Origin: Corallococcus sp. NCRR
GTDB lineage: Bacteria; Myxococcota; Myxococcia; Myxococcales; Myxococcaceae
Assembly: GCF_026965535.1 (NCBI RefSeq)
Contig: NZ_CP114039.1
Span: 7,843,461 to 7,907,460, forward strand
DNA length: 64,000 nucleotides
Direction of reading: 5' to 3'
Made by a program: the position numbers and the translations under genes. The notes below the pieces were generated by a model. The model worked only from the letters and a program-made list of their open reading frames with translations. It had not been told where the DNA came from and did not search any database. Shown here piece by piece: positions 8,122 to 64,000 of the stretch. Within the stretch, counting starts at the first letter, position 1; every line of letters starts with the position of its first letter.

Positions 8122-9909
8122 CTACTGCACGACGCGGACGTTGAGGGCCGTGGACGGCCCGCCCACGGCCGGCGGCACCCAGGGCACCACCTTCTTGTTC
8201 TGCCACTGGAACAGCTTCAGCGACGGGTCCTCCAGCGGCACGTCGAAGGTGTAGGAGATGCGCGTGGGGCCCTGCGCGTCCGCCTCTTCGATCTTCACGA
8301 CCATGCCCTTCATGTCGAACGTGTCGCCCTGGTGCACCGGGTGGCGCGCGGCGCGGTGGATGCGCTCCTCCACGGAGTCCAGGAAGTGGCCGCCCTGGGT
8401 GAGCGACAGCTCCAGCGAGTTGGGGCCGGTGCGCGTCACCTTCTGCTCGTAGAGCGAATAGGACAGCACCCACCAGGCCTTGGGCAGCGGCTGGCCCGAG
8501 GACCACCAGCGCACGGAGCCGTAGATGCCGATGATGCCGTTGGGGGCGTTGAGCACCACCACGCGCTGGTTGGGGAGCTGCTGCTCGTCGAACGCCTCCT
8601 CGTAGCGCGCCTGCACGCGCCCCATGAGCGCGTCCGCCGCCGCGTACTGATCCATGGTCTGCCACCAGATGTACGGCGAGCCCACGACGTGGATGAGCGC
8701 CATCACCGCCGCGCCGGCCAGCACCGCGCCCGCGCGGAACGTCTTCGCCCGCCCCGTCCACGCGTGGCGCAGCACCACGGCCAGCCCCACCGCCATGCCC
8801 AGGCTGGGCACGATGAGCGTGCGCGAGCCGGCGAAGGCGGAGTTGGACAGCCACGTGGACACGAACGCGCCCGTCAGCATCCAGCCCACCGTGCGCCGCT
8901 CCGCGGCCTCCAGCCGGGGCCACACGCCCCACACGAGCAGCGCGAACAGCGTCAGGCCCACCGCGCCCATGACGGTGAAGAGCGGCACCAGGGACTGGTC
9001 GAAGATGAAGTCCGGGGGCGCGTTCAGCGTCAGGCCCGCGATGGCGGCCGGGACGCGGCCGAGCATCGCCTGGAACCACGCCACCGGCGTGCCCAGGGCA
9101 TCCAGGTACATGTCCGAGCCGCCCGCGCCATAGCCCATGGCCCGGTACGCCGCGAAGTAGAGGGCCATCAGCACGCCGAAGGGGATGAGCCCCTTGAGCT
9201 TGTCCTTCGCCTGCCCCGGGCCGGAGAAGGCCTCGTAGGCCAGCACGTACGGGCTGAGGATGACCATGGTCTCACCGCACAGCAGCGCCAGCGCGAAGGA
9301 CACCAGCGCGCCCACCAGCGCGTTCTTCTTCCCCTGCTCCCGCCACTGGATGTGGAGGTAGAGCCCGAGGACGCCGAACAGCAGCGACATCACCACGCTG
9401 CGGTACGACAGCCAGCCCAGCACCGCCGCGTGCGAGCCCCAGATGGCGAAGAGGAACATCGCCACGCCCGCCAGCGCCGTGGGCAGCACGCGCTTGAACA
9501 GCACGCCCGCCAGCACCACCAGGCCCAGGTACCAGAGCACCGAGTGGATCTGATACGCGACCGCGACGCGGTTGTAGAGCAGGTGATCCAGTCCGTAGAG
9601 CAGGCTGCCCAGGGGCCGGAAGAACGAGACGCGCACCGTGGGCTCCACCCACCACGGGAAGACGCCCACCTCCGCCAGCCGCAGCGTGTGCTCCGGGATG
9701 CCCGTGGCCGTGCGGTACACGTCCAGGTGCGTGTTGCCCAGCGGCGCGGGCGGCGGAATGTTGTCCCAGACGCCCAGCCAGATGAAGTCATCCGGCATGA
9801 ATCCCGAGCGCAACGCCAGCGCGCCCAGTGCCACCGCGAACACGATGGAAATCCAGAAGTAACGCTTAAACGGCCAACCCGGGGCGGCTGGCGAAGGTGA
9901 AGTATCCAT
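8122..9909 (-). CDS. Polytopic integral membrane protein (GT-C-like glycosyltransferase candidate; function uncertain)
   Basis: 595 aa with at least 10 hydrophobic helices across the N-terminal two-thirds and a C-terminal soluble domain (about 150 aa). No diagnostic motif recognised. Confidence 0.55.
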   Translation of the reverse strand: MDTSPSPAAPGWPFKRYFWISIVFAVALGALALRSGFMPDDFIWLGVWDNIPPPAPLGNTHLDVYRTATGIPEHTLRLAEVGVFPWWVEPTVRVSFFRPLGSLLYGLDHLLYNRVAVAYQIHSVLWYLGLVVLAGVLFKRVLPTALAGVAMFLFAIWGSHAAVLGWLSYRSVVMSLLFGVLGLYLHIQWREQGKKNALVGALVSFALALLCGETMVILSPYVLAYEAFSGPGQAKDKLKGLIPFGVLMALYFAAYRAMGYGAGGSDMYLDALGTPVAWFQAMLGRVPAAIAGLTLNAPPDFIFDQSLVPLFTVMGAVGLTLFALLVWGVWPRLEAAERRTVGWMLTGAFVSTWLSNSAFAGSRTLIVPSLGMAVGLAVVLRHAWTGRAKTFRAGAVLAGAAVMALIHVVGSPYIWWQTMDQYAAADALMGRVQARYEEAFDEQQLPNQRVVVLNAPNGIIGIYGSVRWWSSGQPLPKAWWVLSYSLYEQKVTRTGPNSLELSLTQGGHFLDSVEERIHRAARHPVHQGDTFDMKGMVVKIEEADAQGPTRISYTFDVPLEDPSLKLFQWQNKKVVPWVPPAVGGPSTALNVRVVQ

Positions 9910-10130
9910 GTTTCAAAGATCTATCAGCACGCCCCCCACACGAGATAGGTCCTCCTGGGTCGTCCGCTGCCACCGGAAACACGCGGAGAGTGCGGCGCGT
10001 GTGATGGAGATCCTTTGCCAGCGCCCGGACTCCGGGTGATCCTCCACCGACGAAGGGGGACGCGGTCCGGCAGGTGAAAACACGAACGCGTGCGCCCGTT
10101 GCATCCGCGCGCGCCGCCAGGCCCGCTCGC

Positions 10131-11546
10131 ATGCGCATCGCCATCATCGCCACGTACACCCATCCGACCCGGCTGCGAATCAAGGAACCCTCCATCATGC
10201 AGTCCTCGGTGCCGGAGCTCATCGCGGGCCTGTGCCCGGAGCACGCCGAGGTGGAGATCTTCAACGAGAAGGAGGCGGACCTGCCGTTGGACCGGCACTG
10301 GGACCTCGTCTTCTTCTCGTACCTGCACTCGTACTACGAGCACACCAAGGTCCTCTCCACCCTCTTCCGTCAGCGCGGCATGACGACGGTGGCCGGGGGC
10401 CGGCACGCGAGCCACTTCCCTGACGACGCGGCGAAGTACTTCGACGCGGTCATCACCGGGGAGCCGGAGTCCAACGTGCCCGCGCTCATCGCGGACTTCG
10501 AGAAGGGCTGCCTCAAGCCCCGCTACAGCCTGCCGTCGCAGGGCGCCGCGGCCATCCGGCCGTACCGCTACGAGCTCATCGACTTCACGCACAACAAGGT
10601 GCGCCTGCCGGGCATCGAGGCGTCGCGTGGCTGCCCCTTCACGTGCAACTTCTGCGTGCTCACCGGCCACGAGCGCTACCGCTTCCGGCCCATCCCGGAG
10701 GTCATCGACGAAATCCAGACGCGCATGCGCTGGAACCCGAACTTCCTGGGGCTGATGGGGGACGCCTTCGTCTTCCTGGACAACAACCTGGGCGGCTCGC
10801 CCAAGTACCTGCGCGCGCTGTGCGAAGCGCTCATCCCCTTGAAGAAGACGTGGGGCTGCGCGCTCACCTTCAACGTGCTCAAGGACGAGTCGCTGGTGAA
10901 GCTGATGGCGAAGGCGGGCTGCCGCTACGTCTACACCGGCCTGGAGTCGCTCAACCCGGACTCGCTCAAGGCGATGAACAAGGGCCAGAACAAGCTGTCG
11001 GAGGTGGACGCCGTCATCCGCCGCGTCTTCTCCGCCGGCATCCTGCTGTCCTTCGGGCTCATCGTCGGCTCGGACGGCGACACGAATGAGTACCTGCACC
11101 GGCTGCCGGACTACCTGGCGGACCTGAAGTACTTCTCCGTCACGTTCCTGGGCATCGTGTGCCCGTATCCGGAGACGCCCTTCTTCCGCGAGCTGAAGGC
11201 GGAAGACCGGCTCCTGCCCGGCACCACCAGCCGCGACTACGACGGCTACACGCTGTGCCACCGGCCCAAGCAGATGCACGCATCGGAAGTGGTGGAGCAC
11301 TTCCAGCGGCTGTGCCGCACGCTGGGCAGCCTGCCCAACATCGCGCGGCACTACGCGTCCAAGCTGATGATGAGTGACCTGCCCCGCTACAGGCAGACCA
11401 TCCTCTTCTCCGGGCCCGAAATCGTCAGCATCCGCAACCCGGTGAAGAACCCGGAGCGCCGCTACATCGCGGGGCTGGATGCCATTGAAGCGTGGGACGC
11501 GGAGCGGATGCCCGGCCTGGGCCTCACGCCGCAGGTCCTGACCTGA
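10131..11546 (+). CDS. B12-binding domain / radical SAM protein
   Basis: The CxxxCxxC motif 'GCPFTCNFC' follows 'GIEASRG', with a B12-binding-like N-terminal region. A likely ATG at 10131 (MRIAIIATY) lies within the longer track ORF that begins at 10074. Confidence 0.8.
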   Translation: MRIAIIATYTHPTRLRIKEPSIMQSSVPELIAGLCPEHAEVEIFNEKEADLPLDRHWDLVFFSYLHSYYEHTKVLSTLFRQRGMTTVAGGRHASHFPDDAAKYFDAVITGEPESNVPALIADFEKGCLKPRYSLPSQGAAAIRPYRYELIDFTHNKVRLPGIEASRGCPFTCNFCVLTGHERYRFRPIPEVIDEIQTRMRWNPNFLGLMGDAFVFLDNNLGGSPKYLRALCEALIPLKKTWGCALTFNVLKDESLVKLMAKAGCRYVYTGLESLNPDSLKAMNKGQNKLSEVDAVIRRVFSAGILLSFGLIVGSDGDTNEYLHRLPDYLADLKYFSVTFLGIVCPYPETPFFRELKAEDRLLPGTTSRDYDGYTLCHRPKQMHASEVVEHFQRLCRTLGSLPNIARHYASKLMMSDLPRYRQTILFSGPEIVSIRNPVKNPERRYIAGLDAIEAWDAERMPGLGLTPQVLT

Positions 11547-52586: not shown

Positions 52587-55148
52587 CTACGACCAGGCGG
52601 CCATGCCGCCAATGCGGCGCAGCATCAGGATGGGGCCGTCGTCCATGCGCCGGCCGCGCAGATCAATCTCACAGTCGATGACCCAGTCCCCATGGCCCTC
52701 CGGGTCCATGATGCGCTGCTGGGCCTCCCACTGGCGCGTGCCGGACTCCTTGAGCTGCGTGTTCGCCGGCTTGCGCGCCTGGGGCGTGAGCACCACCAGC
52801 TTGTGCTCCTCGAAGTACGGCGCCATGGCCTGCTCCAGCTTCGGGGCGGTCCATTCGCCCAGCGCGTTGTCCAGCATGCCCAGCGCGTCCAGGTAGCGGC
52901 GCTGGCCCAGCGCGCGCAGCAGCCGGTGCAGCTCCTCGCGCACGCGCGCGGCGAAGGCCTTGGGGTCCTCCGTGAGCTCCTTGGGCTTGAGGTCCACCAC
53001 AGGCTTCACTTCGACGGGGGCCTCCGGGTTGCGCATCCGCTCCCACTCGTCCAGGAGGCTGGAGTCCACCTGACGCAGCGTCGCGCGCAGGTGGTCGATG
53101 ATGTCGTCCAGGTCCTCGTTGCGGAACTTCTCCGGCACCGTCTGCACCAGCGACTTGTAGACGTCTCCCACGTAGCGCAGGAGCACGCCCTCGCTGCGCT
53201 GCAGGCCGTATTCGCGCACGTAGTCGTGGAAGGACATGAAGCGCTCGAACATGTCCCGGACAATGGACTTGGGCCGGATGTTCTCCTCGCCCACCCACGG
53301 GTGCTTCTTCGCGAAGGCGTTGAAGGTGCCGTAGACGAACTCACGGTTCGGCTTGGGCCACTCCAGCTTCTCCAGCTCCTCCATGCGGTCGTCGTACTCC
53401 ACGCCCCGCGCCTTCATCTCCTGGATCTTCTCCCCCTTCAGCTGGTGCAGCTGCGCGTACAGCACCACGTCCGGGTTCTCCAGGATGGACTCCACCAGCG
53501 TGACGACGTCCAGCGCGTACGTCTCCAGCGTGGGGTCCAACAACTCCAGCGTCTCGTGCAGGTACAGGGACAGCGTGTGGTTGAGGCTGAAGTCGCGCTG
53601 AAGGTCCTCGGACACCTCCACCGTCGCCGAGTGCTTCTCCCACTGCACCACCTTCACGATGCCCGCGTCGCGCAGCGTGCGGAAGTACATCGCCGCGTCC
53701 TTGAGCAGCTTCTTCTTCGTGTAGTCGGAGGAGTGCGAGCGCATCACCAACTGCACCAGCCGCTTGTAGCCGCCGCTGCCCTCCGTCTTGTCGCTCTGGA
53801 GCAGGTTGAGCAAGAGGCCGTGGCTCACGTCGAAGCGCGACTCCAGCGGCTCCGGCATCCCGTTCTGGAGCCGCTCGAAGGTGCTCTTGTCATACTGCAC
53901 GAAGCCCTTCTGCGGCGGCTTCGCCTTGGGCGACTTCTTCTTGCCCGCAGCCTCCTTCGCGGCCTGGCGGATGTTTTCAATCATGTACTCCGGGGCCTGC
54001 GCCACCACGCTGCCCTCGGTGTCGAAGCCCTTGCGGCCCGCGCGGCCGGAGATCTGCTTGAAGTCGCGCACGCTCAACGTGGCCAGCTTCTCGCCGTTGA
54101 ACTTGAACAACTGCGTGAAGAGCACCGTGCGGATGGGGATGTTCACGCCCACGCCCAGCGTGTCCGTGCCGCTGATGACCTTGAGCAGGCCCTGCTGCGC
54201 CAGCTTCTCCACCAGCAGGCGGTACTTGGGCAGCAGGCCCGCGTGGTGCATGCCGATGCCGTGGCGCAGGAAGCGCTGGAAGTCCTTGCCGTAGGGCGTG
54301 TCGAAGGGGGCGTCCAGCAGCGCCTGGCGGATCTCCTCCTTCTCTTCCTTCGTGTTGAAGTCCACGGACATCAGGTTTTGCGCCTGCTCGGCCGCGGCCC
54401 GCTGCGTGAAGTTCACCAGGTAGACGGGGTACTTCCCGCGCGCGATGAGGTCCTGGATGGTCTCGTGCAGCGGCACCTCGCGGTAGTCGAAGTCCAGCGG
54501 CACGGGGCGCTCGGAGCTGCGCACCGTGGCCACCTCGCGGCCGGTGAGCTTCTCCAGGCTCTGCTCGATGACGTGCGTGTCGCCCAGCGTGGCGGACATC
54601 AGCAGGAACTGCGTCTTGGGCAGCGCCAGCAGCGGGATCTGCCAGGCCACCCCGCGCTCCTTGTCGGAGTAGTAGTGGAACTCGTCCATCACCACCGCGT
54701 CCACGCGCGCGGACGCGTCACGCAGCGCGAGGTTCGACAGGATCTCCGCCGTGCAGCAGAGGATGGGCGCCTCGCGGTTGATGGACGCGTCGCCCGTCAG
54801 CATGCCCACGTTCTCCGGGCCGAAGGCCTTGGAGAGCGCGAAGAACTTCTCGTTCACCAGCGCCTTGATGGGGCACGTGTAGAACGACACCTTGCCCTCG
54901 GCCATGGCCTTGAAGTGGAGCGCCATGGCCACCAGCGACTTGCCGGAGCCCGTGGGCGTCTTGAGGAACAGGTGCTTGTCGCTGAGGAGCTCCAGGATGG
55001 CCTCCTCCTGGGCGGAGTACAGGCTCAGGCCGTTCGTGGCCACGTAGCTCACGAAGCGGTTGAGGATCTCGTCGGCGTCGAGTGGGGGCTCGCCGGGCTT
55101 GGGCAGCAGGGCGGCGAGCGGGGCGCGGGTGTCGGCGGAGGCACTCAT
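52587..55148 (-). CDS. Superfamily-2 (Ski2-like) DEAD/DEAH-box helicase with a DUF3516 C-terminal region
   Basis: Motif I 'KTPTGSGKS', motif II 'DEFH', 'SATL', and a helicase C domain 'ISGRAGRKG', followed by a C-terminal extension of about 400 aa. 853 aa. Confidence 0.85.
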   Translation of the reverse strand: MSASADTRAPLAALLPKPGEPPLDADEILNRFVSYVATNGLSLYSAQEEAILELLSDKHLFLKTPTGSGKSLVAMALHFKAMAEGKVSFYTCPIKALVNEKFFALSKAFGPENVGMLTGDASINREAPILCCTAEILSNLALRDASARVDAVVMDEFHYYSDKERGVAWQIPLLALPKTQFLLMSATLGDTHVIEQSLEKLTGREVATVRSSERPVPLDFDYREVPLHETIQDLIARGKYPVYLVNFTQRAAAEQAQNLMSVDFNTKEEKEEIRQALLDAPFDTPYGKDFQRFLRHGIGMHHAGLLPKYRLLVEKLAQQGLLKVISGTDTLGVGVNIPIRTVLFTQLFKFNGEKLATLSVRDFKQISGRAGRKGFDTEGSVVAQAPEYMIENIRQAAKEAAGKKKSPKAKPPQKGFVQYDKSTFERLQNGMPEPLESRFDVSHGLLLNLLQSDKTEGSGGYKRLVQLVMRSHSSDYTKKKLLKDAAMYFRTLRDAGIVKVVQWEKHSATVEVSEDLQRDFSLNHTLSLYLHETLELLDPTLETYALDVVTLVESILENPDVVLYAQLHQLKGEKIQEMKARGVEYDDRMEELEKLEWPKPNREFVYGTFNAFAKKHPWVGEENIRPKSIVRDMFERFMSFHDYVREYGLQRSEGVLLRYVGDVYKSLVQTVPEKFRNEDLDDIIDHLRATLRQVDSSLLDEWERMRNPEAPVEVKPVVDLKPKELTEDPKAFAARVREELHRLLRALGQRRYLDALGMLDNALGEWTAPKLEQAMAPYFEEHKLVVLTPQARKPANTQLKESGTRQWEAQQRIMDPEGHGDWVIDCEIDLRGRRMDDGPILMLRRIGGMAAWS

Positions 55149-55199: not shown

Positions 55200-55616
55200 T
55201 CAGCCGGTAACGTACAGTCCCACCGCGATGTGACCCTCCGTCAGGGGCCCTCCGGCCGCGGGGCGCTGCCAGCACACCCGCCCCGCCTGCTCCGGCGACA
55301 GGCAGGGCACGTCCGTCACCTCCAGCGAGGCTCCAGCCAGGCGGGCCTTGCGCACGGCGGCGCTCCGCGTCAGGCCCAGTAGCTCCGGCGCGGGGGGCGG
55401 TGCCGCCTCGGGGCCCTGCTGGACGAAGACGGCCCGGACCTCGCCGGGGCCTCCGGGGGTGAAGTGCATGCCCGTCCCGTCCGCGGTGACCGCGCCGTGC
55501 AGCTCCAGCTCCACCGGCCCCAGCACGAGGGGGCCGGCGCCGAGCCGCGCCTGGACCCGCGCGAGCGACTCACGCAGGTCCACCAGCAGGGCCTCCAGGT
55601 CGATGGCGTCGCTCAT
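55200..55616 (-). CDS. Hypothetical protein: shared N-terminal helix/strand module plus C-terminal PASTA-like domain (138 aa)
   Basis: N-terminus 'DLEALLVDLRESLARVQARLG...LVLGPVELELHGAVT'. C-terminal 'PELLGLTRSAAVRKARLAGASLEV' matches the PASTA pattern. Confidence 0.5.
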   Translation of the reverse strand: MSDAIDLEALLVDLRESLARVQARLGAGPLVLGPVELELHGAVTADGTGMHFTPGGPGEVRAVFVQQGPEAAPPPAPELLGLTRSAAVRKARLAGASLEVTDVPCLSPEQAGRVCWQRPAAGGPLTEGHIAVGLYVTG

Positions 55617-55635
55617 CGCGGCACGGACCGTCCGT

Positions 55636-56304
55636 TCACTTCAAGGGCTCGGCGGCCACGGTCTCCAGGACGGGCGAGCGGGTGAGGACTCCGGTGGGCG
55701 GGAGCTTCCCTCCGCCGGTCGTCTGCACGGTGAGCACCAGCTCGGTGCCGCGCGGCAGCAGTGTCCCCGGCTCGGCCGAAGCCGCGGTGACCAAGGCTGC
55801 GTCCTTCGCGCCGTCAGGGAACCGGTGGGGCACGCCGATGGCGGACAGCAGCAGCCGCGCTTCGGCCACCGTCTTGCCTACCACCGCGGGCACCACCACC
55901 AGCGCCTCCGCCTGGGGCGACGGAGGCACCGGCACCACCCGGAACTTCAGCCGCGACTGCGCCGTCAGGTTGTAGGCGAAGCGGTTGGTGTAGCTGGCGT
56001 CCATGGGCGCGCCGTACATCTTCAGCCGCGTCCGTCCATCCGTCCGCTCCTCCGCGGTGATGGACAGCGCCACGGCGATCTCCGCCTCGGCCTCGGGGAT
56101 GTGGTACCAGGTCGGCCGGTAGCCGATGCGCTGCAGCTCCACCGCCAGGTCCTCGTCCGAGGCGTAGAGCTCGCGGATCCGCTCGATGGTCGCCGCGTCC
56201 AGCTCCCGCTGCGCCTCCGCCACGCCGCGGCCCACCGAGGAGATCAACGCGCCCAGCGGCGCGCTCAGCGCCTCCAACTGGGGGACGTCATTCGAATCCG
56301 CCAT
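55636..56304 (-). CDS. Hypothetical protein: shared N-terminal module plus C-terminal PASTA-like domain (222 aa)
   Basis: N-terminus 'LGALISSVGRGVAEAQRELD...YRPTWYHIPEAEAEIAVALSITAEE'. C-terminal 'VVPAVVGKTVAEARLLLSAIGV' is PASTA-like. Confidence 0.5.
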   Translation of the reverse strand: MADSNDVPQLEALSAPLGALISSVGRGVAEAQRELDAATIERIRELYASDEDLAVELQRIGYRPTWYHIPEAEAEIAVALSITAEERTDGRTRLKMYGAPMDASYTNRFAYNLTAQSRLKFRVVPVPPSPQAEALVVVPAVVGKTVAEARLLLSAIGVPHRFPDGAKDAALVTAASAEPGTLLPRGTELVLTVQTTGGGKLPPTGVLTRSPVLETVAAEPLK

Positions 56305-56307
56305 GGT

Positions 56308-57039
56308 TCAGCCCTCCATCGCCTGGCCAATGATCAACTGCACGGGGCCCGAAGCGAGCGGCTTGCCCGGCTCCGGCACCTGCCGCAGCACGCGGCCCCA
56401 CTGCCCGGGCTCCTTGACGAACAAGGGCATCGGGTCCACCCGCAGCCCCGCCTCCGCCGCGCGCCGCCGGGCCGCCGAGGTCGTCATCCCCAGGAAGCTC
56501 GGCACCTCGCGGGCGGGCGCGTCGCCCGTCTCGGGCGCGGCGGGAGACTGCTCCACGAACTGGGCCTCCGCCTCCGTCACGCCCTCGGTCGTCGTCTCCG
56601 TCCACCGCACGCGGACGGTGCTCAACCGCACCGTCGTCAGCGACGCGCGCACTGCTTCGATCTGCTGGCCCGCCGACTTCAGCTTGTCGGACAGCACCAG
56701 GGACGTGCCCTGCTCCAGGGCGGGCTCCTTGGTGGGCTCCACCGCCGCGGAGGACACCGCGCGCACGCCCTCCCTCGCGGGCTCCAGGACGACCATCGTC
56801 CCGTAGTCGATGAGGGTGCTGCTCATCTTCACCGGGAAGGTGGCCACCCCGGCGGAGTCCAGCCGCAGGTGGGAGCCGAAGGTGGCGCTGCTGACCTCCA
56901 TCTCCAGCACGCCCGCCTCGTTCGTCACCCCGGTGTCGCGCAGCTCGAAGGTGCCCGTCTTCGCGGGGACCCACCACGCCACCTTCATCCCCGCCACGGG
57001 GACTCCCGTGGCCTTGTGGAACACGGCCCGGACCTTCAT
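56308..57039 (-). CDS. Hypothetical protein: Ig-like beta-sandwich N-terminal domain plus C-terminal PASTA-like domain (243 aa)
   Basis: N-terminal 'VAGMKVAWWVPAKTGTFELRDTGVTNEAGVLEMEV' is Ig/Big-like. C-terminal 'VPSFLGMTTSAARRRAAEAGLRV' is PASTA-like. The start overlaps the upstream stop (ATGA). Confidence 0.5.
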   Translation of the reverse strand: MKVRAVFHKATGVPVAGMKVAWWVPAKTGTFELRDTGVTNEAGVLEMEVSSATFGSHLRLDSAGVATFPVKMSSTLIDYGTMVVLEPAREGVRAVSSAAVEPTKEPALEQGTSLVLSDKLKSAGQQIEAVRASLTTVRLSTVRVRWTETTTEGVTEAEAQFVEQSPAAPETGDAPAREVPSFLGMTTSAARRRAAEAGLRVDPMPLFVKEPGQWGRVLRQVPEPGKPLASGPVQLIIGQAMEG

Positions 57040-57740
57040 CGAGCCACCTCACAGGACAGCGCCAGCGTCCGCGACGCGGCATCCACCGTGAGCGCCAGGA
57101 TGCGGGCCTGCTCGCCGGCCGCCACGCGCAGCGTCGTCCGCGCCTCCCCCGCCGCGTCCGTCCTCACCACCGCGAGCACCACGTCCGTGCCCGCCAGCGG
57201 CGCCACGCCGGACAGCGACTGCGTCGTCCTGCGGTCCAGGTTGAACTCCACCTCCACGCCCGGCAGTGCCTCGCCCGCGGCGTTGCGCACGCGCACCACC
57301 ACGCCCGGCACGCCTCCGTCGCCGATGACGCAGCGGGCGTCGAGCACCACCGGAGGCAGGCCCTCGTTGGCCGGCACCGCGACGAAGCTGCCGCGGATCA
57401 CGCTGACGATCTCCGTCTTCGTCTGCGAAGAGGCCACGTCCGCCAGCCGCACGGGCCGCATCTTCAGGATCTTCCCGTTGGCCACCGGTCCGGTGGTGGT
57501 GGTGGACGTCTCCACCCGCAGGTCCATCCGCAGCTCGAACTCCAGCTTCGGCACGTAGTAGGTGAACTGGCGGCCGGGCGCGCCGGCCGCGGAGATGCCT
57601 CCCAGCTCCTGCTGGGCCTTCGCCAGGCCGTCGGCCAGCTCGAGCAGGTACTCGTCCAGCGTGCCGAACAACTCCTGCGCCTGCTGTGTCGTGTCACTCA
57701 TCCCGCGCTCCCTGGCGCCCGCGTTCCCGCCGCGTGTCAC
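57036..57740 (-). CDS. Hypothetical protein: shared N-terminal module plus Ig-like C-terminal domain (234 aa)
   Basis: N-terminus 'LDEYLLELADGLAKAQQELGG...FTYYVPKLEFELRMDLRVETS'. The C-terminal 'GVVVRVRNAAGEALPGVEVEF...TDAAGEARTTLRV' is Ig-like. Confidence 0.5.
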   Translation of the reverse strand: MTRGGNAGARERGMSDTTQQAQELFGTLDEYLLELADGLAKAQQELGGISAAGAPGRQFTYYVPKLEFELRMDLRVETSTTTTGPVANGKILKMRPVRLADVASSQTKTEIVSVIRGSFVAVPANEGLPPVVLDARCVIGDGGVPGVVVRVRNAAGEALPGVEVEFNLDRRTTQSLSGVAPLAGTDVVLAVVRTDAAGEARTTLRVAAGEQARILALTVDAASRTLALSCEVAR

Positions 57741-58632
57741 GTGCCGTGTCGCGCGCGTCCATGTCGTCCATGCCCATGCCGGCGCGCTCCATCTCCATGT
57801 CCATCTGTTGCTCCATGGACTCCATGTCCATGCCGGCCATCGCCAGCCCGCGCATCATCAGGGCCTCGGTGTCCAGCGAGCGGGGATCCATGCCCCGAAG
57901 CTCGCGCGCCACCGCCATCCCCTTCTCCACCTTCCCTATCGTGAGCCCGCCGCGCCCCCCCAGGGCCCGCCCCATCTGCCCGAGCGAGGGCAGCGTCTGG
58001 CCCTTCTCCAGCGCGAGCGGCCTGCGCGCCGCCGAGCGCGCCTCCTCCGCTACGTCCGCCAACCGCCGGGTCGCGGACCCCAGCTCCCCCAGCTTCATGC
58101 GGCCCCGGCCCGGAGACTCCAGGACGCGCTCCGCCAGCCGCGTGGCCAGCTTCGCGCGCTCACGCGCCTTGCGCGCCCACTGCTGGCGCAGCGTCTGCTG
58201 CTTCTGCGCCTGACGCCGGGCCGCCTTCCCCGCCTGCAGGCGCTCGCGGCGCAGCTCCTCCACCCGCTCGGCCTCCTCCGCCTCCGTCCGGCGCCGGGCG
58301 TACAGCTTCTGCTCCAGCAGCCGCCGCGCGGTGTCCCGCTCGTGCTGCTTGCGCTCCGCGATGCGCGACTCCGGCGTGTGCTGGACGACGGGGAACTGCT
58401 TCGCCAGCCGCTCGTCCACGGGCGCCTCCTGCACGCCGCTCAGCGCCTTCATCGTGTCTTCGAGCTGCCGGCGCTCCTTCAGCAACGCCGCCAGCTCCGG
58501 GTCGCTGGCGGCCACCTGCTCCAGCGAGGGCACGGGCGTGTCCGCGCCCAAGGCAGGAGCGGACGCGCCAACGTCATCGGCGGCCCCCGAGGCGTCCTCC
58601 TCCAGCAGGTCTTCCCAACGAACGTGTGACAT
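57694..58632 (-). CDS. Charged coiled-coil protein with a Met/Asp/Glu-rich C-terminal tail (312 aa)
   Basis: Long Arg/Glu/Ala/Gln heptad-like region. The tail reads 'LAMAGMDMESMEQQMDMEMERAGMGMDDMDARD', and the DNA shows reiterated catgtcc/catgcc units. It overlaps the downstream gene by 47 nt. Confidence 0.5.
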   Translation of the reverse strand: MSHVRWEDLLEEDASGAADDVGASAPALGADTPVPSLEQVAASDPELAALLKERRQLEDTMKALSGVQEAPVDERLAKQFPVVQHTPESRIAERKQHERDTARRLLEQKLYARRRTEAEEAERVEELRRERLQAGKAARRQAQKQQTLRQQWARKARERAKLATRLAERVLESPGRGRMKLGELGSATRRLADVAEEARSAARRPLALEKGQTLPSLGQMGRALGGRGGLTIGKVEKGMAVARELRGMDPRSLDTEALMMRGLAMAGMDMESMEQQMDMEMERAGMGMDDMDARDTARDTRRERGRQGARDE

Positions 58633-58650
58633 GCGCGGCGCCCCTTGGCG

Positions 58651-59241
58651 TCAGGTGACGTTGCCCACGGCGGTGTCGATCTTCCCGCTGACGGCCTCGC
58701 CCTCCGCGGTGCCCTTGAGGCCCTTGGCGATCTCCGCGCAGATCTGCTGGAGCGCCGCCGGAGGGGGGATGGGCACCAGCTTGGTGCGGATGAGGCTCGA
58801 GCCCTCGGCGGAATAGCTGTACTTCTGCGAATGCTTGGCCGTGACGGTGGTGACGTGGCTCTTGTGGCCCTTCACCAGCGTGGTGAGGATGCCCTTGTCG
58901 CGGTCCACCTTGCGGTCGCGCGTCTGGGTCGAGTCGTCAGTGGACTCGTGCATGGAGATCTCCATCTTCACTTCGATGATGGTCTCCACGAACTGGTAGA
59001 ACGTGGGCGTGAAGCCGAGCAGGAGCAGCGGGTACTCGGTGGTCCCCAGCTTCACGAAGCCGGCCCCGTCCCGCACGGCGTTGCCGCTGTCGTCGATGCG
59101 GTAGCCCGCCATGAGCTGGGCGATCTTCAGCGACGAGCTGTCCAGGGCGTACTGGGCATCCGCGATGGCGTTGCCCAGGTTGCGGACCATCTCCCCGAAG
59201 GGGACGTTGAGCAGATCCTGACCAATGGAGTTGGTGGGCAT
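58651..59241 (-). CDS. Paralog 1 of an uncharacterised family (196 aa)
   Basis: Shares the N-terminal 'LLNVPFGEMVRNLGNAIADAQYALD...LGFTPTFYQFVETIIEVKMEI' and the C-terminal 'YSYSAEGSSLIRTKLVPIPPP' with the genes at 59260, 59858 and 60371. Confidence 0.55.
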   Translation of the reverse strand: MPTNSIGQDLLNVPFGEMVRNLGNAIADAQYALDSSSLKIAQLMAGYRIDDSGNAVRDGAGFVKLGTTEYPLLLLGFTPTFYQFVETIIEVKMEISMHESTDDSTQTRDRKVDRDKGILTTLVKGHKSHVTTVTAKHSQKYSYSAEGSSLIRTKLVPIPPPAALQQICAEIAKGLKGTAEGEAVSGKIDTAVGNVT

Positions 59242-59259
59242 GGTGCGCGCGCTCCCAGG

Positions 59260-59835
59260 CTACTTGGCGGGGGTGGGCGTGGTGCCGGCCCTGGACGCGA
59301 TGAGCGCGCGAACCCGCTCCTCGAAGAGGGCCGGCGGAGGCACCGGCACCAGCTTGGTGCGCAGCAGGCTGGAGCCCTCCACGCTGTAGTCGTACTTGCG
59401 CGTGTAGCTGGCGTCCACGGTCGTCACCACGGCCTGGGGCGCGCCGCCGCGCTTGAAGAGACGCAGCCCGCCGGCCGTCCGCGAGGTGCTCTGCGTCGCC
59501 ACCTTGCTCTCCGTGCTCTCCGTCATCTTGATGGCGATCTTCACCTCGATGATGGTGTCCACGAACTGGTAGAAGTTGGGCGCGAAGCCCAGCTCCATCA
59601 TGGACGAGGGCGTGCCCGCGAAGGACACCTTGGTGTCCACCCGGATGGGCTTGCCGGAGCCGTCGAGCTGGATGTTCCCGTCGGCGTCCCGCAGCAGCGC
59701 CTCGCCGCTCATCATCTCCGCGACGAGCATCCCGCTCTTGTCCAGCTCGAGCTGCGCCTCGGCGATGGCGGTCGCCATCTCACGAATCATGTCCCCCATG
59801 GGGACGTTCAGCAGTTCCTGACCGACGTTGGGCAT
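59260..59835 (-). CDS. Paralog 2 of an uncharacterised family (191 aa)
   Basis: 'LLNVPMGDMIREMATAIAEAQLELD...LGFAPNFYQFVDTIIEVKIAI...YDYSVEGSSLLRTKLVPVPPP'. Confidence 0.55.
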   Translation of the reverse strand: MPNVGQELLNVPMGDMIREMATAIAEAQLELDKSGMLVAEMMSGEALLRDADGNIQLDGSGKPIRVDTKVSFAGTPSSMMELGFAPNFYQFVDTIIEVKIAIKMTESTESKVATQSTSRTAGGLRLFKRGGAPQAVVTTVDASYTRKYDYSVEGSSLLRTKLVPVPPPALFEERVRALIASRAGTTPTPAK

Positions 59836-59857
59836 GGTGTCTGGGTCCTTGCGCGCT

Positions 59858-60361
59858 TCAGGCGGAGGTATTGGTGGAGGCCGCGGGCAGCGGCGGCTGG
59901 GCGGCGATCTCGTTGAGCAGTTGGTGCAGGCGCGCGGGCGGAGGCAGCGACACCAGCCGCGCGGCGATGGAGCTGGCGCCCTGCACCTCGAAGCCGTACT
60001 TGCGGCTGTACTCGGCGTTGACCGTCACGGAGAAGATGCCGGCCATGCCGCCCGTCGCGCCGCCGCCCACGGAGAACTCCGTGGACTCGCGGATGGTGAA
60101 GGTGAGCTTCGCCTCGAGCGTGGCCTCGGCGAAGGCGTAGAACGTGGGCGTGAAGCCGAGCGCGAGCAGGCTCCACAACTGCCCGTCGCCCAGGTCCACG
60201 GTGCGCTCGGACATGCGCTTCGCGATGTCCAGAGAGTTGACGTCCAGCGCGTGCTGCGCGTCCGCCACCGCGCGCCCGAGCCGCTCGATGAGCTCGGGCA
60301 GCGGCGCGTCCAGCACCGTCATCATCGCGCGCTGGCCCTGCGTGGTGTTGTTTCCGGGCAT
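59858..60361 (-). CDS. Paralog 3 of an uncharacterised family (167 aa)
   Basis: 'LIERLGRAVADAQHALD...LGFTPTFYAFAEATLEAKLTF...YGFEVQGASSIAARLVSLPPP'. Confidence 0.55.
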   Translation of the reverse strand: MPGNNTTQGQRAMMTVLDAPLPELIERLGRAVADAQHALDVNSLDIAKRMSERTVDLGDGQLWSLLALGFTPTFYAFAEATLEAKLTFTIRESTEFSVGGGATGGMAGIFSVTVNAEYSRKYGFEVQGASSIAARLVSLPPPARLHQLLNEIAAQPPLPAASTNTSA

Positions 60362-60370
60362 GGGGACTCC

Positions 60371-62467
60371 TTACGGGTACCAGCGTTCGAGGTAGTCGCC
60401 GATGGCCTGGAGGAACTGGGGCGGCGCGGGCACCGCCACCAGGCGGGCCTTGATGGTCGAGCTGCCGGACACGCTCATCTCGTACTTCACCGAAGCGTGC
60501 GCATCGACGTTGAGGGCGCGCAGCTCGCGCTCGGAGCTCTCCTCGCGGTCCGCGGACGGCTTGCCGGCGATGCGGTTGGCCGACAGCAGGAACGCGGCGG
60601 GGTTGCTGGTGCCCAGCATGGTGCCGGAGGGGCCGGAGACGGTGACGATGTTGCCCGCGGACTGGGCCTGGAGGCCCGCGGCCAGTACGCCGGAGCTGGA
60701 GCCCGCCGTGATGGCGGCGGCCAGGTTGCGCGCCGTGTCCGCGGCCGTCACCCCCAGCGTGAACTGCCCCGGCTGCGGGGCGACGCCGGTCTCCACGGCC
60801 ACCAGCTGCACGTTGTCGATGACGACGGTGTCGCGAGGCTGGGGCGAGGCCGGCGGGCGGCCGTCGCCGAAGCGGCGGGCCACGCGGATGGAGCCCGCTG
60901 CGGACAGGGCCGGCGCGGTGGGCGTGCGCGCGAACAGGGTGAACAGGGCGTGGTCACCGGTGCCGTACAGGTAGACGCGGTCCCCGCGCGCGAAGGCGCC
61001 GAAGGCGGTGTTGGCGTTGGCGTCGCGGATGGCGCGGGCCAGGTTCGCGGCGGTGGACTCCGCGGTGGCGCCCACCGCGAAGGTTGTGCCCTGGGAGGCG
61101 GTGCCCTGGGTGAAGTCCGTGCCACGGAAGGTGACGACGGCCGTGGTGGGCGCGTTCGCGGCGGCGCGCGTGCGCGGCACGATGCGGGCCTCGCGGTCCG
61201 TCCCCGTGGGGTCGAAGGCGGCCGTGGCCGCGCCGGTGCGGGCCACCAGCGACGCGGGCACGCCGGAGAAATGGAAGACGACGCGCCGGTTGGCCGCCAG
61301 GTCGGAGCTGCTGAAGTCGACCGTCGCGCCCATGCCCCGGGCCTTGAGCCTGCTGGCCGCCACGCCCCGCGACGTCAGCGCCCTCAGGACGAAGTCCGCG
61401 CGCCGCTGCGACAGGCGCTGGTTGTAGCCGGGGGCCGGCGGCGTGCGCTGATCCGCCCAGCCCTCCAGGTCCAGCGAGGCGGACGGGTGCTCCGCCAGCA
61501 GCGCCGCCACCGCGTCGAGGATGGCGGAGGGCTCGCGGTCCGTGCCGTAGGTGGTGGTGGGCACGTCGTGGATGTCGGTGTCGAAGTAGATGGCCCGGTT
61601 GCAGTCAGCGCCGGAGACGACGAGGAAGGCGGCCGGGTCCACCTGCTGCCCGATGTCCGCCAGCGCCGCGCCCACCGTCGCCGCGGTGCTGGTGTAGCGC
61701 GTGCCGTTGGTGGCCGGCAGCAGCAGCGCGGGCGCGGGCGTCACGCTGCCCAGCCGCGCGATGACCAGGTTGTCGCCGGGCGCCGCCTGCGGCGAGGTGC
61801 GCACGGTGATGACCGAGCGGTTGATGGCGTAGAGGTCCGGGCGGTTGGTGCTGGCGGTGACGCCCGACTGCATCTCCCAGTCCATGAAGACGCCCTGCAG
61901 GTCCCCCGCGGCCTGGTTGGTCCAGACGGAGTTGTTGCGCAGGGCCACGAGCAGCTCCTGCGCCGTCTCCCACAGCGTGTCCTGGCGGGTGACCGGCAGG
62001 CCGCTGCTGTTGGGGCCCACGCCGCCGTCCAGCGCGTAGCTGGTGGTGCCCACCGTGAGGTGGCCCGGCGCGTTGGCCACCAATGCCAGACAGGCGTAGG
62101 GGGGGATGCCCTCGCCGTCCTGCACCGTGAGGGTGGCGCTGCCGCTGGCGGAGGACGTCTCGAGGCTGTACTCACTCGACTCGTTCTCGTTGTCGTAGTT
62201 GAAGTTGGCGCCCACGTCGATGGTGGTCGAGTAGTAGACGTTGAGGTTCACCTCCAGGTCGGCGTACTGGAAGTGGTAGAAGGCCGGCCGCAGCCCCAGC
62301 GCCAGCAGGTTCTGCGTCATGCCCGGCAGGACGGTCTGCCCCATGCGCAGCGTCTGATCCACGCTGTTGGTGTCCAGCTGGGTCTGGGCCTCGGCGATGG
62401 CGAGCCCCATGTCCCGGATGAAATCGGAGATGTTGAGATCCGCGAGGATCTTCCCTGCTTTCGGCAT
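60371..62467 (-). CDS. Paralog 4 of the same family (698 aa) with a central insertion that includes an OmpA-like peptidoglycan-binding domain
   Basis: N-terminus 'FIRDMGLAIAEAQTQLD...LGLRPAFYHFQYADLEVNLNV'. C-terminus 'YEMSVSGSSTIKARLVAVPAPP'. OmpA_C-like block 'FDTDIHDVP...GWADQRTPPAPGYNQRLSQRRADFVLRALTSRGVAASRLKARGMG' at about 61270-61615. Confidence 0.6.
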   Translation of the reverse strand: MPKAGKILADLNISDFIRDMGLAIAEAQTQLDTNSVDQTLRMGQTVLPGMTQNLLALGLRPAFYHFQYADLEVNLNVYYSTTIDVGANFNYDNENESSEYSLETSSASGSATLTVQDGEGIPPYACLALVANAPGHLTVGTTSYALDGGVGPNSSGLPVTRQDTLWETAQELLVALRNNSVWTNQAAGDLQGVFMDWEMQSGVTASTNRPDLYAINRSVITVRTSPQAAPGDNLVIARLGSVTPAPALLLPATNGTRYTSTAATVGAALADIGQQVDPAAFLVVSGADCNRAIYFDTDIHDVPTTTYGTDREPSAILDAVAALLAEHPSASLDLEGWADQRTPPAPGYNQRLSQRRADFVLRALTSRGVAASRLKARGMGATVDFSSSDLAANRRVVFHFSGVPASLVARTGAATAAFDPTGTDREARIVPRTRAAANAPTTAVVTFRGTDFTQGTASQGTTFAVGATAESTAANLARAIRDANANTAFGAFARGDRVYLYGTGDHALFTLFARTPTAPALSAAGSIRVARRFGDGRPPASPQPRDTVVIDNVQLVAVETGVAPQPGQFTLGVTAADTARNLAAAITAGSSSGVLAAGLQAQSAGNIVTVSGPSGTMLGTSNPAAFLLSANRIAGKPSADREESSERELRALNVDAHASVKYEMSVSGSSTIKARLVAVPAPPQFLQAIGDYLERWYP

Positions 62468-62470
62468 GGT

Positions 62471-63019
62471 CTACCCCAAGGGTGCGGCGACGGGAGGAAG
62501 TGCGACGGCGACGTCGGGACGAACGGTGTCGGGACGGACGACCCAGTAGGCGTGACGGTCCTGCTCCAGCGTGATGCGGCGCGCGTCCACGTGCAGTCCG
62601 GTGCGCGCCCAGCCCAGCACCCGCTCCGACAGCGGGAGCCGCCCGGCGCCGGCCAGCGCCACCGCGGACTCCAGCCGCGTGCGCGCCTCGGCCAGGCGCC
62701 CCAGCTTCGCCAGCGCCAGGCCGTGCCGCTCGTGGTGCGCGGCCAGGTCCTGGCGGGCCAGGTCGCTCGTGGGAGGCTGCTGCTGGTAGTGGGCCTCCAC
62801 GCGCTGGCAGAAGGAGATGACGGCCTCGTGGGCCCCCGAGCGCTCCAGCGACTCGAGCACGCACCACGCATAGTGGCGCTGGCAGACGTCGGAGCCGCCC
62901 TGGAGCGCGGCCAGCCGCAGCGCCTCCCGGTAGTGGCGCAGCGCCTCGTCATGCCGGCCGGCCAGCGCGAACACCTTGCCCTGCTCCGCCACGCGGAAGT
63001 GCAGCGCGAGCGAGCTCAC
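62471..63019 (-). CDS. Small TPR-like helical protein (182 aa)
   Basis: 'ALRHYREALRLAALQG...' helical repeat pattern. The start overlaps the upstream stop (ATGA at 63016-63019). Confidence 0.45.
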   Translation of the reverse strand: MSSLALHFRVAEQGKVFALAGRHDEALRHYREALRLAALQGGSDVCQRHYAWCVLESLERSGAHEAVISFCQRVEAHYQQQPPTSDLARQDLAAHHERHGLALAKLGRLAEARTRLESAVALAGAGRLPLSERVLGWARTGLHVDARRITLEQDRHAYWVVRPDTVRPDVAVALPPVAAPLG

Positions 63020-64000
63020 TGGGACACCAGGGAGGTCCGCGTGCCCCGCGCGCGCAGCTCCGCGACGAGCCAGCGCGCGCGCGTGTCCCCCACCGTGGCC
63101 TGGAAGGTATGCGGCAGCCGCGAGAGCGCGGTGCGCGCCTCGTTGGCTTGCAGCCCCAGCGCCGGGGCCAGCAGCTCCGCGGCCACGGCGGGGTCCTTCG
63201 ACTCCTCCACCGTCAGGCGGAAGCTGCGGAAGTTGATGAGCTGCACGGCCAGCTTCGCGCCCGCGGCCTCCAGGGGCGCGGTGCGCGCCACCACGTCCGC
63301 GCGCGACAGCCCCGTGTGCAGCACCACCGGCAGCCGCTTGAGCACCTTCGGAACCAGCGCCGGGGGCATGCCCGTCTCACGCACCAGCAGCTCCGGGAAG
63401 CCGGCGTCGGCGGGGGCCTCCAGGAGGCTGACGTCGAAGCGCTGGAAGGCGTGATCCAACAACCGCACCCCACCCCGCGCGCCCAGCTCCCGCCACACGC
63501 GCTCCGCCTGCGCGTGCGAGAGGTCCCGGGCCACCAGCGGCGGCTCCCCCGGAGTCACGCCCTGCCCCTCCAGCACCGAGCGGACCCCCGCGAGGCTGAC
63601 CACCTCCGTGGCGAAGACGTCATAGCGGGCGGTGGGCGGATGGCTGGCGTCCACCTCCGCGCCCAGCGGGGCGAAGCGCTCCCGGAGCGCGTCCACCGTG
63701 GCCTGGGAGACGGAGCCGAGCACCGTGGGCGGCGTGGCGCAGAGCGCCGCGGCGGCGTCCGCCAGGGGACAGCCCAGCACGGCCGCCAGCTCCGTGCAGA
63801 CCTCACGGAAGCGCCCGCCGTCACGCAGGTACAGCGCCACGTCGTAGGTCTGCCCGGGAGGAGGAAGAAGGGGCGCGTCATCCGGCTCCACGACCACGCG
63901 CAGGCCCGCGTTGCCCAGCACCTCCGACAGGCCCCGGGCGACGTCCTCCGGAAGGCCCCCGGCCAGCACCGCGGGGGCGCGGAACAGCCTCGCCGCGAGC
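63016..64000 (-). CDS. Hypothetical protein with repeated ribosomal L7/L12 C-terminal-domain-like modules; N-terminus lies beyond the window edge
   Basis: The frame is open to nt 64000. Segments 'AVAAELLAPALGLQANEARTALSRLPHTFQATVGDTRARWLVAELRARG' and 'VVARTAPLEAAGAKLAVQLI' resemble the L7/L12 CTD. Confidence 0.45.
   Translation of the reverse strand, partial: LAARLFRAPAVLAGGLPEDVARGLSEVLGNAGLRVVVEPDDAPLLPPPGQTYDVALYLRDGGRFREVCTELAAVLGCPLADAAAALCATPPTVLGSVSQATVDALRERFAPLGAEVDASHPPTARYDVFATEVVSLAGVRSVLEGQGVTPGEPPLVARDLSHAQAERVWRELGARGGVRLLDHAFQRFDVSLLEAPADAGFPELLVRETGMPPALVPKVLKRLPVVLHTGLSRADVVARTAPLEAAGAKLAVQLINFRSFRLTVEESKDPAVAAELLAPALGLQANEARTALSRLPHTFQATVGDTRARWLVAELRARGTRTSLVSQ

Follow-up and report, generated by a model that had tools for sequence, protein, structure and literature searches.

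Three small non-enzymatic PASTA proteins at the 3' end of a conserved 11-gene operon in Corallococcus sp. NCRR

The window analysed here, a stretch of 64,000 nucleotides (nt) from Corallococcus sp. NCRR (contig NZ_CP114039.1), carries three adjacent small genes, here called gP138, gP222 and gP243, which form the 3' end of an 11-gene minus-strand operon (63969..55200). A first-pass annotation of the window had described three neighbouring open reading frames (ORFs) of 138, 222 and 243 amino acids (aa), each ending in a single PASTA-like unit, and the ORF list contains all of them, with the positions as described and the quoted peptides inside. The genes and their domain layout are as follows.

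55200..55616, minus strand: gP138, 138 aa, a Trypco2-like helix/strand element and a C-terminal PASTA domain
55636..56304, minus strand: gP222, 222 aa, a full core helix and beta-hairpin module, then a C-terminal PASTA domain
56308..57039, minus strand: gP243, 243 aa, a beta-sandwich-like N-terminus, an element here called X, and a C-terminal PASTA domain

For all three genes, the GC content is far higher at third codon positions (GC3 of 0.92-0.97) than at second positions (GC2 of 0.51-0.55). Orthologues are 57-99% identical to gP138 and 44-95% identical to gP222, and those of the trio reach into low-GC Flavobacterium. Because of this GC3 signal and the conservation of the orthologues, gP138, gP222 and gP243 are real genes. 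A protein of C. coralloides KYC2213 is 95% identical to gP222, and the gP222 orthologues are named "PASTA domain-containing protein" by NCBI.

The C-terminal units were scored with the Pfam PASTA model (PF03793, gathering threshold 23.2 bits), with the following results.

55212..55388, minus strand: PASTA domain of gP138, aa 77-135, 17.2 bits, under the threshold
55723..55899, minus strand: PASTA domain of gP222, aa 136-194, 29.3 bits, over the threshold
56329..56508, minus strand: PASTA domain of gP243, aa 178-237, 28.6 bits, over the threshold

The Pfam search that the first-pass annotation had proposed thus recovered gP222 and gP243, rather than leaving all three below the threshold. The unit of gP138 is accepted as a PASTA domain despite its 17.2 bits, since PF03793 is matched by 8/8 of the gP138 orthologues (best E 6e-10), the profile of the gP138 family matches PknB PASTA domains in the PDB (E 1e-5), its C-terminus is 40% identical to the PASTA region of gP243, with 41% between the two PASTA domains over 54 aa, and a hidden Markov model (HMM) trained on the operon family recognises all three units at 1e-13 to 1e-15, that of gP138 at 1.8e-13. 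Structure prediction, likewise proposed at first pass, was run on one structure, and the small alpha/beta PASTA fold, with one helix on a three-stranded sheet, was seen in the model. The PASTA domains of the operon are nevertheless divergent, with Pfam scores of 17-29 bits and identities of 15-26% to solved PASTA domains. Two or three units stand in tandem in some gP222 orthologues, from Glaciecola, Fluviicola and Cytophagales (loci L063, 10001-11107, and L070, 9965-10852, as well as L075 and L082).

The central proposal of the first-pass annotation, that single C-terminal PASTA units are borne here by small non-enzymatic proteins, is therefore supported by Pfam and by the orthologue profiles. 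As it had also maintained, no kinase or penicillin-binding protein (PBP) domain is present in the trio, nor was any other enzyme domain found there by Pfam, NCBIfam, PADLOC or PHROGs; the PknB/Stk1 family model NF033483 matches the PASTA stretch alone, at 12 bits against a cut-off of 450. The absence of an evident signal peptide was confirmed as well, as a heuristic hydropathy scan (not SignalP) detected neither a signal-peptide-like N-terminus nor a transmembrane (TM) helix in the trio, and the same scan found essentially no such segments in ~600 orthologues of the operon proteins. The trio thus lacks the TM helix or signal peptide behind which the extracytoplasmic PASTA domains of PknB and PBP2x are placed.

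The operon in which the trio lies is compact, with intergenic gaps or overlaps of -4 to +22 nt, and its gene order from 5' to 3' is g317, TPR, gOmpA698, g167, g191, g196, g312, g234, gP243, gP222 and gP138. The eight genes upstream of the trio are as follows.

63016..63969, minus strand: g317, the first gene of the operon, without a family match, found at the same position in 57 loci
62471..63019, minus strand: TPR protein of 182 aa, the second gene, present in 51 loci, overlapping its neighbours by a few bases
60371..62467, minus strand: gOmpA698, 698 aa, a core module with an insert of ~500 aa that includes an OmpA-like domain
59858..60361, minus strand: g167, a minimal core module
59260..59835, minus strand: g191, a core paralogue with a polar/charged hairpin tip
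58651..59241, minus strand: g196, a core paralogue with a charged hairpin tip
57694..58632, minus strand: g312, a highly charged low-complexity protein of 312 aa, without a family match
57036..57740, minus strand: g234, a divergent core module with an Ig-like (Big_1-like) C-terminal domain, found in 65 loci

No recognisable enzyme, NTPase, transporter, secretion component or Sec-targeted protein was found in the operon, and NCBIfam, PADLOC and PHROGs returned nothing useful for its small proteins. For g317, no family match was obtained by PHROGs with the protein of the window, and none that was significant by Pfam with the Flavobacterium orthologue; its start codon is uncertain, since the ORF begins 31 nt from the end of the window. 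In most taxa g317 is ~350-400 aa long (as in L026, 1306-2370) and resembles four repeats of ~85 aa with a recurring 'L..VLG......A..LL...P.VL'. The TPR protein is identified through its Flavobacterium orthologue, which matches TPR_2 at 32.7 bits. The product of g312 is probably disordered or coiled; its position in the operon is conserved and its sequence hardly so, the counterpart in Flavobacterium being a K/E-rich protein of 409 aa (L026, 6714-7943). In the window g312 and g234 overlap at the annotated start region. The Big_1 match is weak both in g234 and in 14 of its orthologues.

The distribution of the operon was studied in a scan of one genome per species, from which 80 loci were kept for comparison. 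At least 185 relatives of gP222 were confirmed. The loci come from Myxococcota, Gemmatimonadota, Bacteroidota (Flavobacterium, Fluviicola, Kordia, Tenacibaculum and Aquimarina), Gammaproteobacteria (Halomonas, Halopseudomonas, Marinobacterium and Glaciecola), Sphingomonadales, Desulfonema, Acidobacteriota, Nitrospirota, SAR324 and others. In these 80 loci the order g317, TPR, core module with OmpA, g167, g191, g196, (charged protein), g234, (long PASTA protein), gP222 is near-invariant. Clustering of every ORF of the 80 loci indicated that the operon is self-contained: only its own families are conserved, and no protease, NTPase, secretion gene or regulator was found to travel with it. Its GC content matches that of the host. 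Two PASTA genes were counted in 61 of 81 loci, three in 14 and one in 6, and the trio of the window is thus a local variant of a conserved PASTA pair, a point that the first-pass annotation had missed. The most conserved PASTA gene of the operon is gP222, orthologues of which are present in 80/80 loci, while the PASTA domain was found at the C-terminal end of 42/42 gP243 orthologues.

Apart from the PASTA domains, the operon is characterised by a core module of which each operon contains five to seven paralogues, consisting of an N-terminal helix, a long amphipathic beta-hairpin and a Pro-rich 'VPVPPP' stop. Mutual matches connect g167, g191, g196, gOmpA698 and gP222; g234 aligns with the g167 family over 121 columns (hhalign 68%, E 5e-5) and is a probable divergent member of the core family, judging from sequence. 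At 50% identity, the family falls into 1,154 clusters in a set of 1.84 billion representatives; Pfam has no model for it, and its database names are all "hypothetical protein", as for the C. interemptor protein that is 100% identical to g167. In the AlphaFold2 (AF2) model of g167, a confident helix at residues 21-51 (pLDDT 85-96) is followed by a hairpin at 74-102/112-139, with ~28 residues per strand and a tip of pLDDT <50, and by a C-terminal helix behind the conserved 'LVSLPPP'. The hairpin strands show strict alternation of hydrophobic and polar residues (83 sequences). As modelled, the core fold looks like that of a beta-pore-former. The topology of helix, hairpin and helix is similar to that of gas-vesicle proteins as well, and a gas-vesicle-like reading was considered and rejected, as neither Gvp family matches nor GvpN/F-type genes were found.

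An uncharged hairpin tip rich in Gly, Ala and Val, for instance 'TSVGASVTGGVNTGVFMAAATV', was found only in the g167 orthogroup (loci L001-L084); in 53 orthologues, the g167 tip is 5% charged and 64% hydrophobic or Gly. Since the tips of the other core paralogues, g191, g196 and gP222, are polar or charged, the sequences suggest that g167 is the only membrane-competent paralogue. The insert of gOmpA698, in turn, lies exactly at the hairpin tip, with a median spacing of 501 aa between the strand motifs, and its OmpA-like domain (PF00691, aa 314-393) scores 43.4 bits against a threshold of 27.2. This domain carries the motif GWAD...YNQRLSQRRA from aa 336, and the underlying D...N..LS..RA motif, with the Asp and Arg conserved for peptidoglycan binding in OmpA-like domains, is kept in 30/47 orthologues.

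For the trio itself, the first-pass annotation had proposed that two of its members carry the shared module of the operon. This holds for gP222, which is a core module followed by PASTA, since homology to the g167 family covers its aa 10-133 (hhalign 99.4%, E 5e-21). It does not hold for gP138, whose placement in the large core family was rejected after its N-terminus had aligned with the g167 core at an hhalign probability of 0.6%. The N-terminus of gP243 had been called Ig-like at first pass, and what backs this description are sub-threshold beta-sandwich matches, to Big_1 (21 bits against a threshold of 34.9) and, in orthologues, to MG4, transthyretin and CarboxypepD_reg. The protein of the window is a shortened member of its family; in most taxa the length is 300-450 aa, and the middle regions of the orthologues match coiled-coil families. 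One locus of a gammaproteobacterial metagenome-assembled genome (MAG; L018, 6923-8419 and 8501-9958) encodes two long PASTA proteins in which the beta-sandwich N-terminus is exchanged for a LamG/concanavalin-like region, as judged from the motif 'GYWKLDEGSGT...DSS..GN.G...GGEW' alone.

In every member of the gP243 family, the ~70 aa directly before the PASTA domain form element X, laid out as a helix, a 'YRLGxVxLxLK' strand and an 'LSELxLxLxP' strand. The corresponding part of gP138 is the following.

55470..55604, minus strand: element X of gP138, aa 5-49, helix and first strand, with a sub-threshold Trypco2/Pepco match

Thus gP138 is composed solely of X and PASTA; its aa 17-123 align with aa 283-399 of a 419-aa Mangrovicoccus orthologue of the gP243 type (35% identity, E 1e-9), and its orthologues were seen only in Corallococcus, Myxococcus, Archangium and two MAGs. 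On account of this composition, alignment and narrow occurrence, gP138 is identified, at the level of sequence, as a copy, restricted to one lineage, of the C-terminal half of a gP243-type protein. Element X has a borderline similarity to the N-terminus of g234 (49%, E 1.7e-4), and a search of a 5.8-billion-protein set with the X profile produced only a frameshift fragment of an operon gene and no new contexts.

A lead on the possible function of these modules comes from the Trypco2/Pepco family (PF19631, gathering threshold 24.2 bits). Trypco1 and Trypco2, which Kaur et al. 2020 (PMC7159879) had defined, were later characterised as Pepco, a protein of 117 aa that was shown by experiment to assemble constitutively into stable, SDS-resistant 9-10-mer beta-barrels (bioRxiv 10.1101/2025.11.14.688446). 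The barrel has an amphipathic helix at its base, is hydrophobic on the outside and has a charged lumen; it turns into a lethal pore when the C-terminal tail, which is charged and Pro-rich, is cut off by a protease. The best Trypco2 scores, 20.1-21.8 bits, belong to element X of gP138 (20.1 bits for the protein as a whole) and cover positions 1-47 of the 78 in the profile. Such sub-threshold matches recur in 13/48 X elements from diverse phyla, in 5/8 gP138 orthologues and in 8/140 core-family proteins, and Trypco2 is the only family matched by more than one of the 48 X elements. As in the published description of Pepco, the modules encoded by the operon are small and non-enzymatic; they start with a helix, continue in strands whose polarity alternates and end in a C-terminal extension that is charged and rich in Pro, and the PASTA domains of the operon sit where Pepco has its tail. 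The long amphipathic hairpin in the monomer model of g167 is compatible with a Pepco-type barrel, which is not to say that it proves one. In contrast to Pepco, the core module of the operon is larger (~28-residue strands) and is present as five to seven distinct paralogues, folded PASTA, OmpA-like and Ig-like domains replace the short cleavable tail, and the operon is without a protease or sensor; no trypsin-like or caspase-like peptidase is conserved near it in the 80 loci. Because of the sub-threshold scores and the missing protease, membership in the Pepco family is not claimed, and by analogy the operon proteins may work like Pepco.

The interpretation preferred here, which is put forward tentatively and by analogy, is that the three PASTA proteins may be non-catalytic peptidoglycan-binding subunits of a hetero-oligomeric, Pepco-like assembly. 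The hairpin modules would join to form a hetero-oligomeric beta-sheet or barrel similar to the Pepco/Trypco2 pre-pore, with g167 as the sole source of a lipid-compatible hairpin tip. Peptidoglycan or muropeptide stems would be bound by the OmpA-like domain, which is located at a hairpin tip, and by the PASTA domains, which immediately follow the presumed oligomerisation module, in the position of the regulatory tail of Pepco; through such binding the assembly would be anchored, positioned or gated at the cell wall. Within it, gP222 would be a core subunit whose tail is a PASTA domain, gP243 an adaptor that combines a beta-sandwich with a small Trypco2-like element and PASTA, and gP138 a Myxococcaceae-specific duplicate of the last half of gP243.

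Several observations weigh against the peptidoglycan-binding assembly. Its main weakness is that, in proteins without export signals, the route by which OmpA-like and PASTA domains would arrive at the peptidoglycan is unexplained; moreover, hairpins inserted from the cytoplasm would leave the OmpA insert at their tip and the PASTA domain at their base on opposite sides of the membrane. Muropeptide binding is not a property of every PASTA domain. By HMM, all Trypco2 scores of the operon proteins stay below the Pfam threshold, element X has no significant hhalign similarity to the core module (3.7%), and no experimental data on any orthologue were found in the literature searched.

Among the alternatives, the operon might encode a conflict or suicide module, in which a latent Pepco-like pore would kill or permeabilise the producer upon a danger signal such as phage attack or wall damage, with the PASTA and OmpA-like domains as muropeptide sensors or autoinhibitory tails and the TPR protein and g317 as chaperone and regulator. 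The recurrence of the Trypco2 matches speaks for it, as does Pepco's role as a defence effector whose partner proteases can bear peptidoglycan-binding sensor domains. Both OmpA and PASTA are named among the peptidoglycan-associating effector domains of Gram-negative iSTAND conflict systems (PMC7159879). A patchy distribution over phyla and a reduced copy on a Sphaerotilus megaplasmid would also be in keeping with such a module, and action from the cytoplasm would fit the absence of export signals. However, neither a protease nor a STAND/NTPase or other sensor is conserved in or beside the operon, PADLOC has no match for any of the small proteins, and the 8-11 genes keep their order far more strictly than modular defence systems usually do. 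In addition, tblastn detected no homologue among 50,697 phage records, and the host-like GC content of the operon also tells against this explanation, which is considered unlikely while still deserving to be kept in mind.

Another alternative would be a purely cytoplasmic structural assembly, in which PASTA would serve as a protein-protein or small-molecule adaptor and never meet peptidoglycan. The lack of Sec/Tat-type signals and TM helices across the ~600 orthologues would be accounted for directly, and the divergence of the PASTA domains likewise speaks for it. Against it, two independent types of peptidoglycan-binding domain, the motif-bearing OmpA-like domain and PASTA, are conserved across phyla in one operon, and because of this co-occurrence a peptidoglycan-derived ligand is favoured over a pure cytoplasmic adaptor, which appears rather unlikely.

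It is very improbable that the operon encodes a released antibacterial or predatory weapon, that is, a pore-forming complex that leaves the cell by lysis, in vesicles or by a non-Sec route and whose PASTA and OmpA-like domains recognise foreign peptidoglycan. Its amphipathic hairpin with a Gly-rich uncharged tip does resemble the stems of secreted beta-pore-forming toxins, several wall-binding and beta-sandwich domains occur together without an enzyme, and the hosts include predators or surface-associated bacteria such as Corallococcus, Archangium, Saprospiraceae and Fluviicola. However, non-predatory bacteria carry the operon just as well, among them Halomonas, Sphingomonadales, Caulobacter-like bacteria and Desulfonema, and signal peptides, conserved secretion genes and an evident immunity gene are all missing. 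Finally, the idea that the trio represents shadow ORFs with PASTA-like motifs arisen by chance, which could appeal to the ~70% GC of the window and its abundant long non-coding ORFs on both strands, has practically no likelihood and is ruled out by the conservation and the domain statistics.

A bolder form of the peptidoglycan-binding assembly can be envisaged, in which the operon would encode a self-contained, Sec-independent beta-barrel machine that has so far gone unrecognised in diderm bacteria. Fragments of peptidoglycan would be sensed by its PASTA and OmpA-like domains, either in the cytoplasm, where they stem from recycling or damage, or, once the machine has inserted itself, in the periplasm, and this would license a perforin-like hetero-oligomeric pore of five to seven paralogues. 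This is a speculative proposal and, as it stands, an improbable one. If true, the operon would represent, in bacteria, a counterpart of systems in which the sensing of muropeptides is coupled to the formation of pores, and PASTA would acquire its first role as the ligand-gated tail of a pore-forming module instead of that of a kinase or PBP.

PASTA usually counts as a hallmark of the cell-wall kinases and PBPs of Gram-positive bacteria, and classical PASTA proteins are known mainly from Firmicutes and Actinobacteria (Yeats et al. 2002). In comparison with the PASTA domains of the PknB/PrkC/StkP kinases and of the class B PBPs (PBP2x, S. aureus PBP1), the operon proteins are without a kinase or transpeptidase domain, TM segment or signal peptide; they bear one unit each (rarely two to three in some orthologues) and not two to four in tandem, this unit is fused to a helix/beta-hairpin module instead, and the hosts are diderm. 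The gOmpA698 domain is similar to OmpA/Pal/MotB anchors in its conserved D...N..LS..RA motif and differs from them in being inserted at a beta-hairpin tip, in a protein without a lipobox, signal peptide or TM helix. The co-occurrence of OmpA-like and PASTA domains outside kinases and PBPs in Gram-negatives recalls the effector domains of the iSTAND systems (OmpA, PASTA, PEGA and Sel1; PMC7159879), but those follow a TM segment within vWA-MoxR/STAND NTPase systems, whereas the operon has neither TM segments nor an NTPase.

Taken alone, the bare observation of PASTA domains in these proteins is not new and is of modest interest, since NCBI labels the orthologues accordingly and both domains, PASTA and OmpA, had already been reported from conflict systems of Gram-negatives, apart from kinases and PBPs. 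In the literature on Trypco2, DUF2589, Pepco and PASTA with OmpA, no description of the operon was found, and four things appear to be undescribed in the literature searched: the operon as such, its obligatory joining of PASTA to a helix/beta-hairpin module, the absence of export signals throughout the system, and a pore-former-like core in which one paralogue is lipid-compatible. PASTA here recurs in Gram-negative phyla on non-enzymatic proteins without an export signal, with an OmpA-like domain in the same operon, and this operon of 8-11 genes is unusually well conserved for an unannotated system. Identifying its role would give a function to about 1,150 protein clusters, and would put to the test both PASTA outside the kinase/PBP context and Pepco-like barrels beyond protease-linked antiviral systems.

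Some loci depart from the common arrangement. A reduced five-gene variant without g317, TPR, OmpA and g234 was found in Burkholderiales, namely in Rubrivivax (L083 and L084) and Sphaerotilus sulfidivorans (L085). The latter was the only match in a tblastn search of plasmids and lies on pSna507_unt10, a 303-kb megaplasmid (8643-11422), where every gene is annotated as 'hypothetical protein'. A MAG labelled Methanimicrococcus sp. (L079, 830-3221) contains a 376-aa gP222-like PASTA protein and two core paralogues, an archaeal occurrence that could be due to bin contamination or to transfer into an archaeon. In a Myxococcota MAG, the operon is followed by a gene for a 527-aa AAA_16/STAND-like ATPase (L001, 11958-13541), which is not conserved at other loci.

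Downstream of the operon in the window, a scan of the interval between gP138 and the next gene found no promoter or terminator. This next gene, 51 nt downstream of gP138 (52587-55148, minus strand), encodes an 853-aa Ski2/HelY-like DEAD/DEAH helicase, which matches Hachimoji/HamB-type profiles in PADLOC (E 5e-25) over the helicase core only. It was considered as a part of the system and rejected, as it adjoins the operon only in Corallococcus loci and is therefore probably unrelated.

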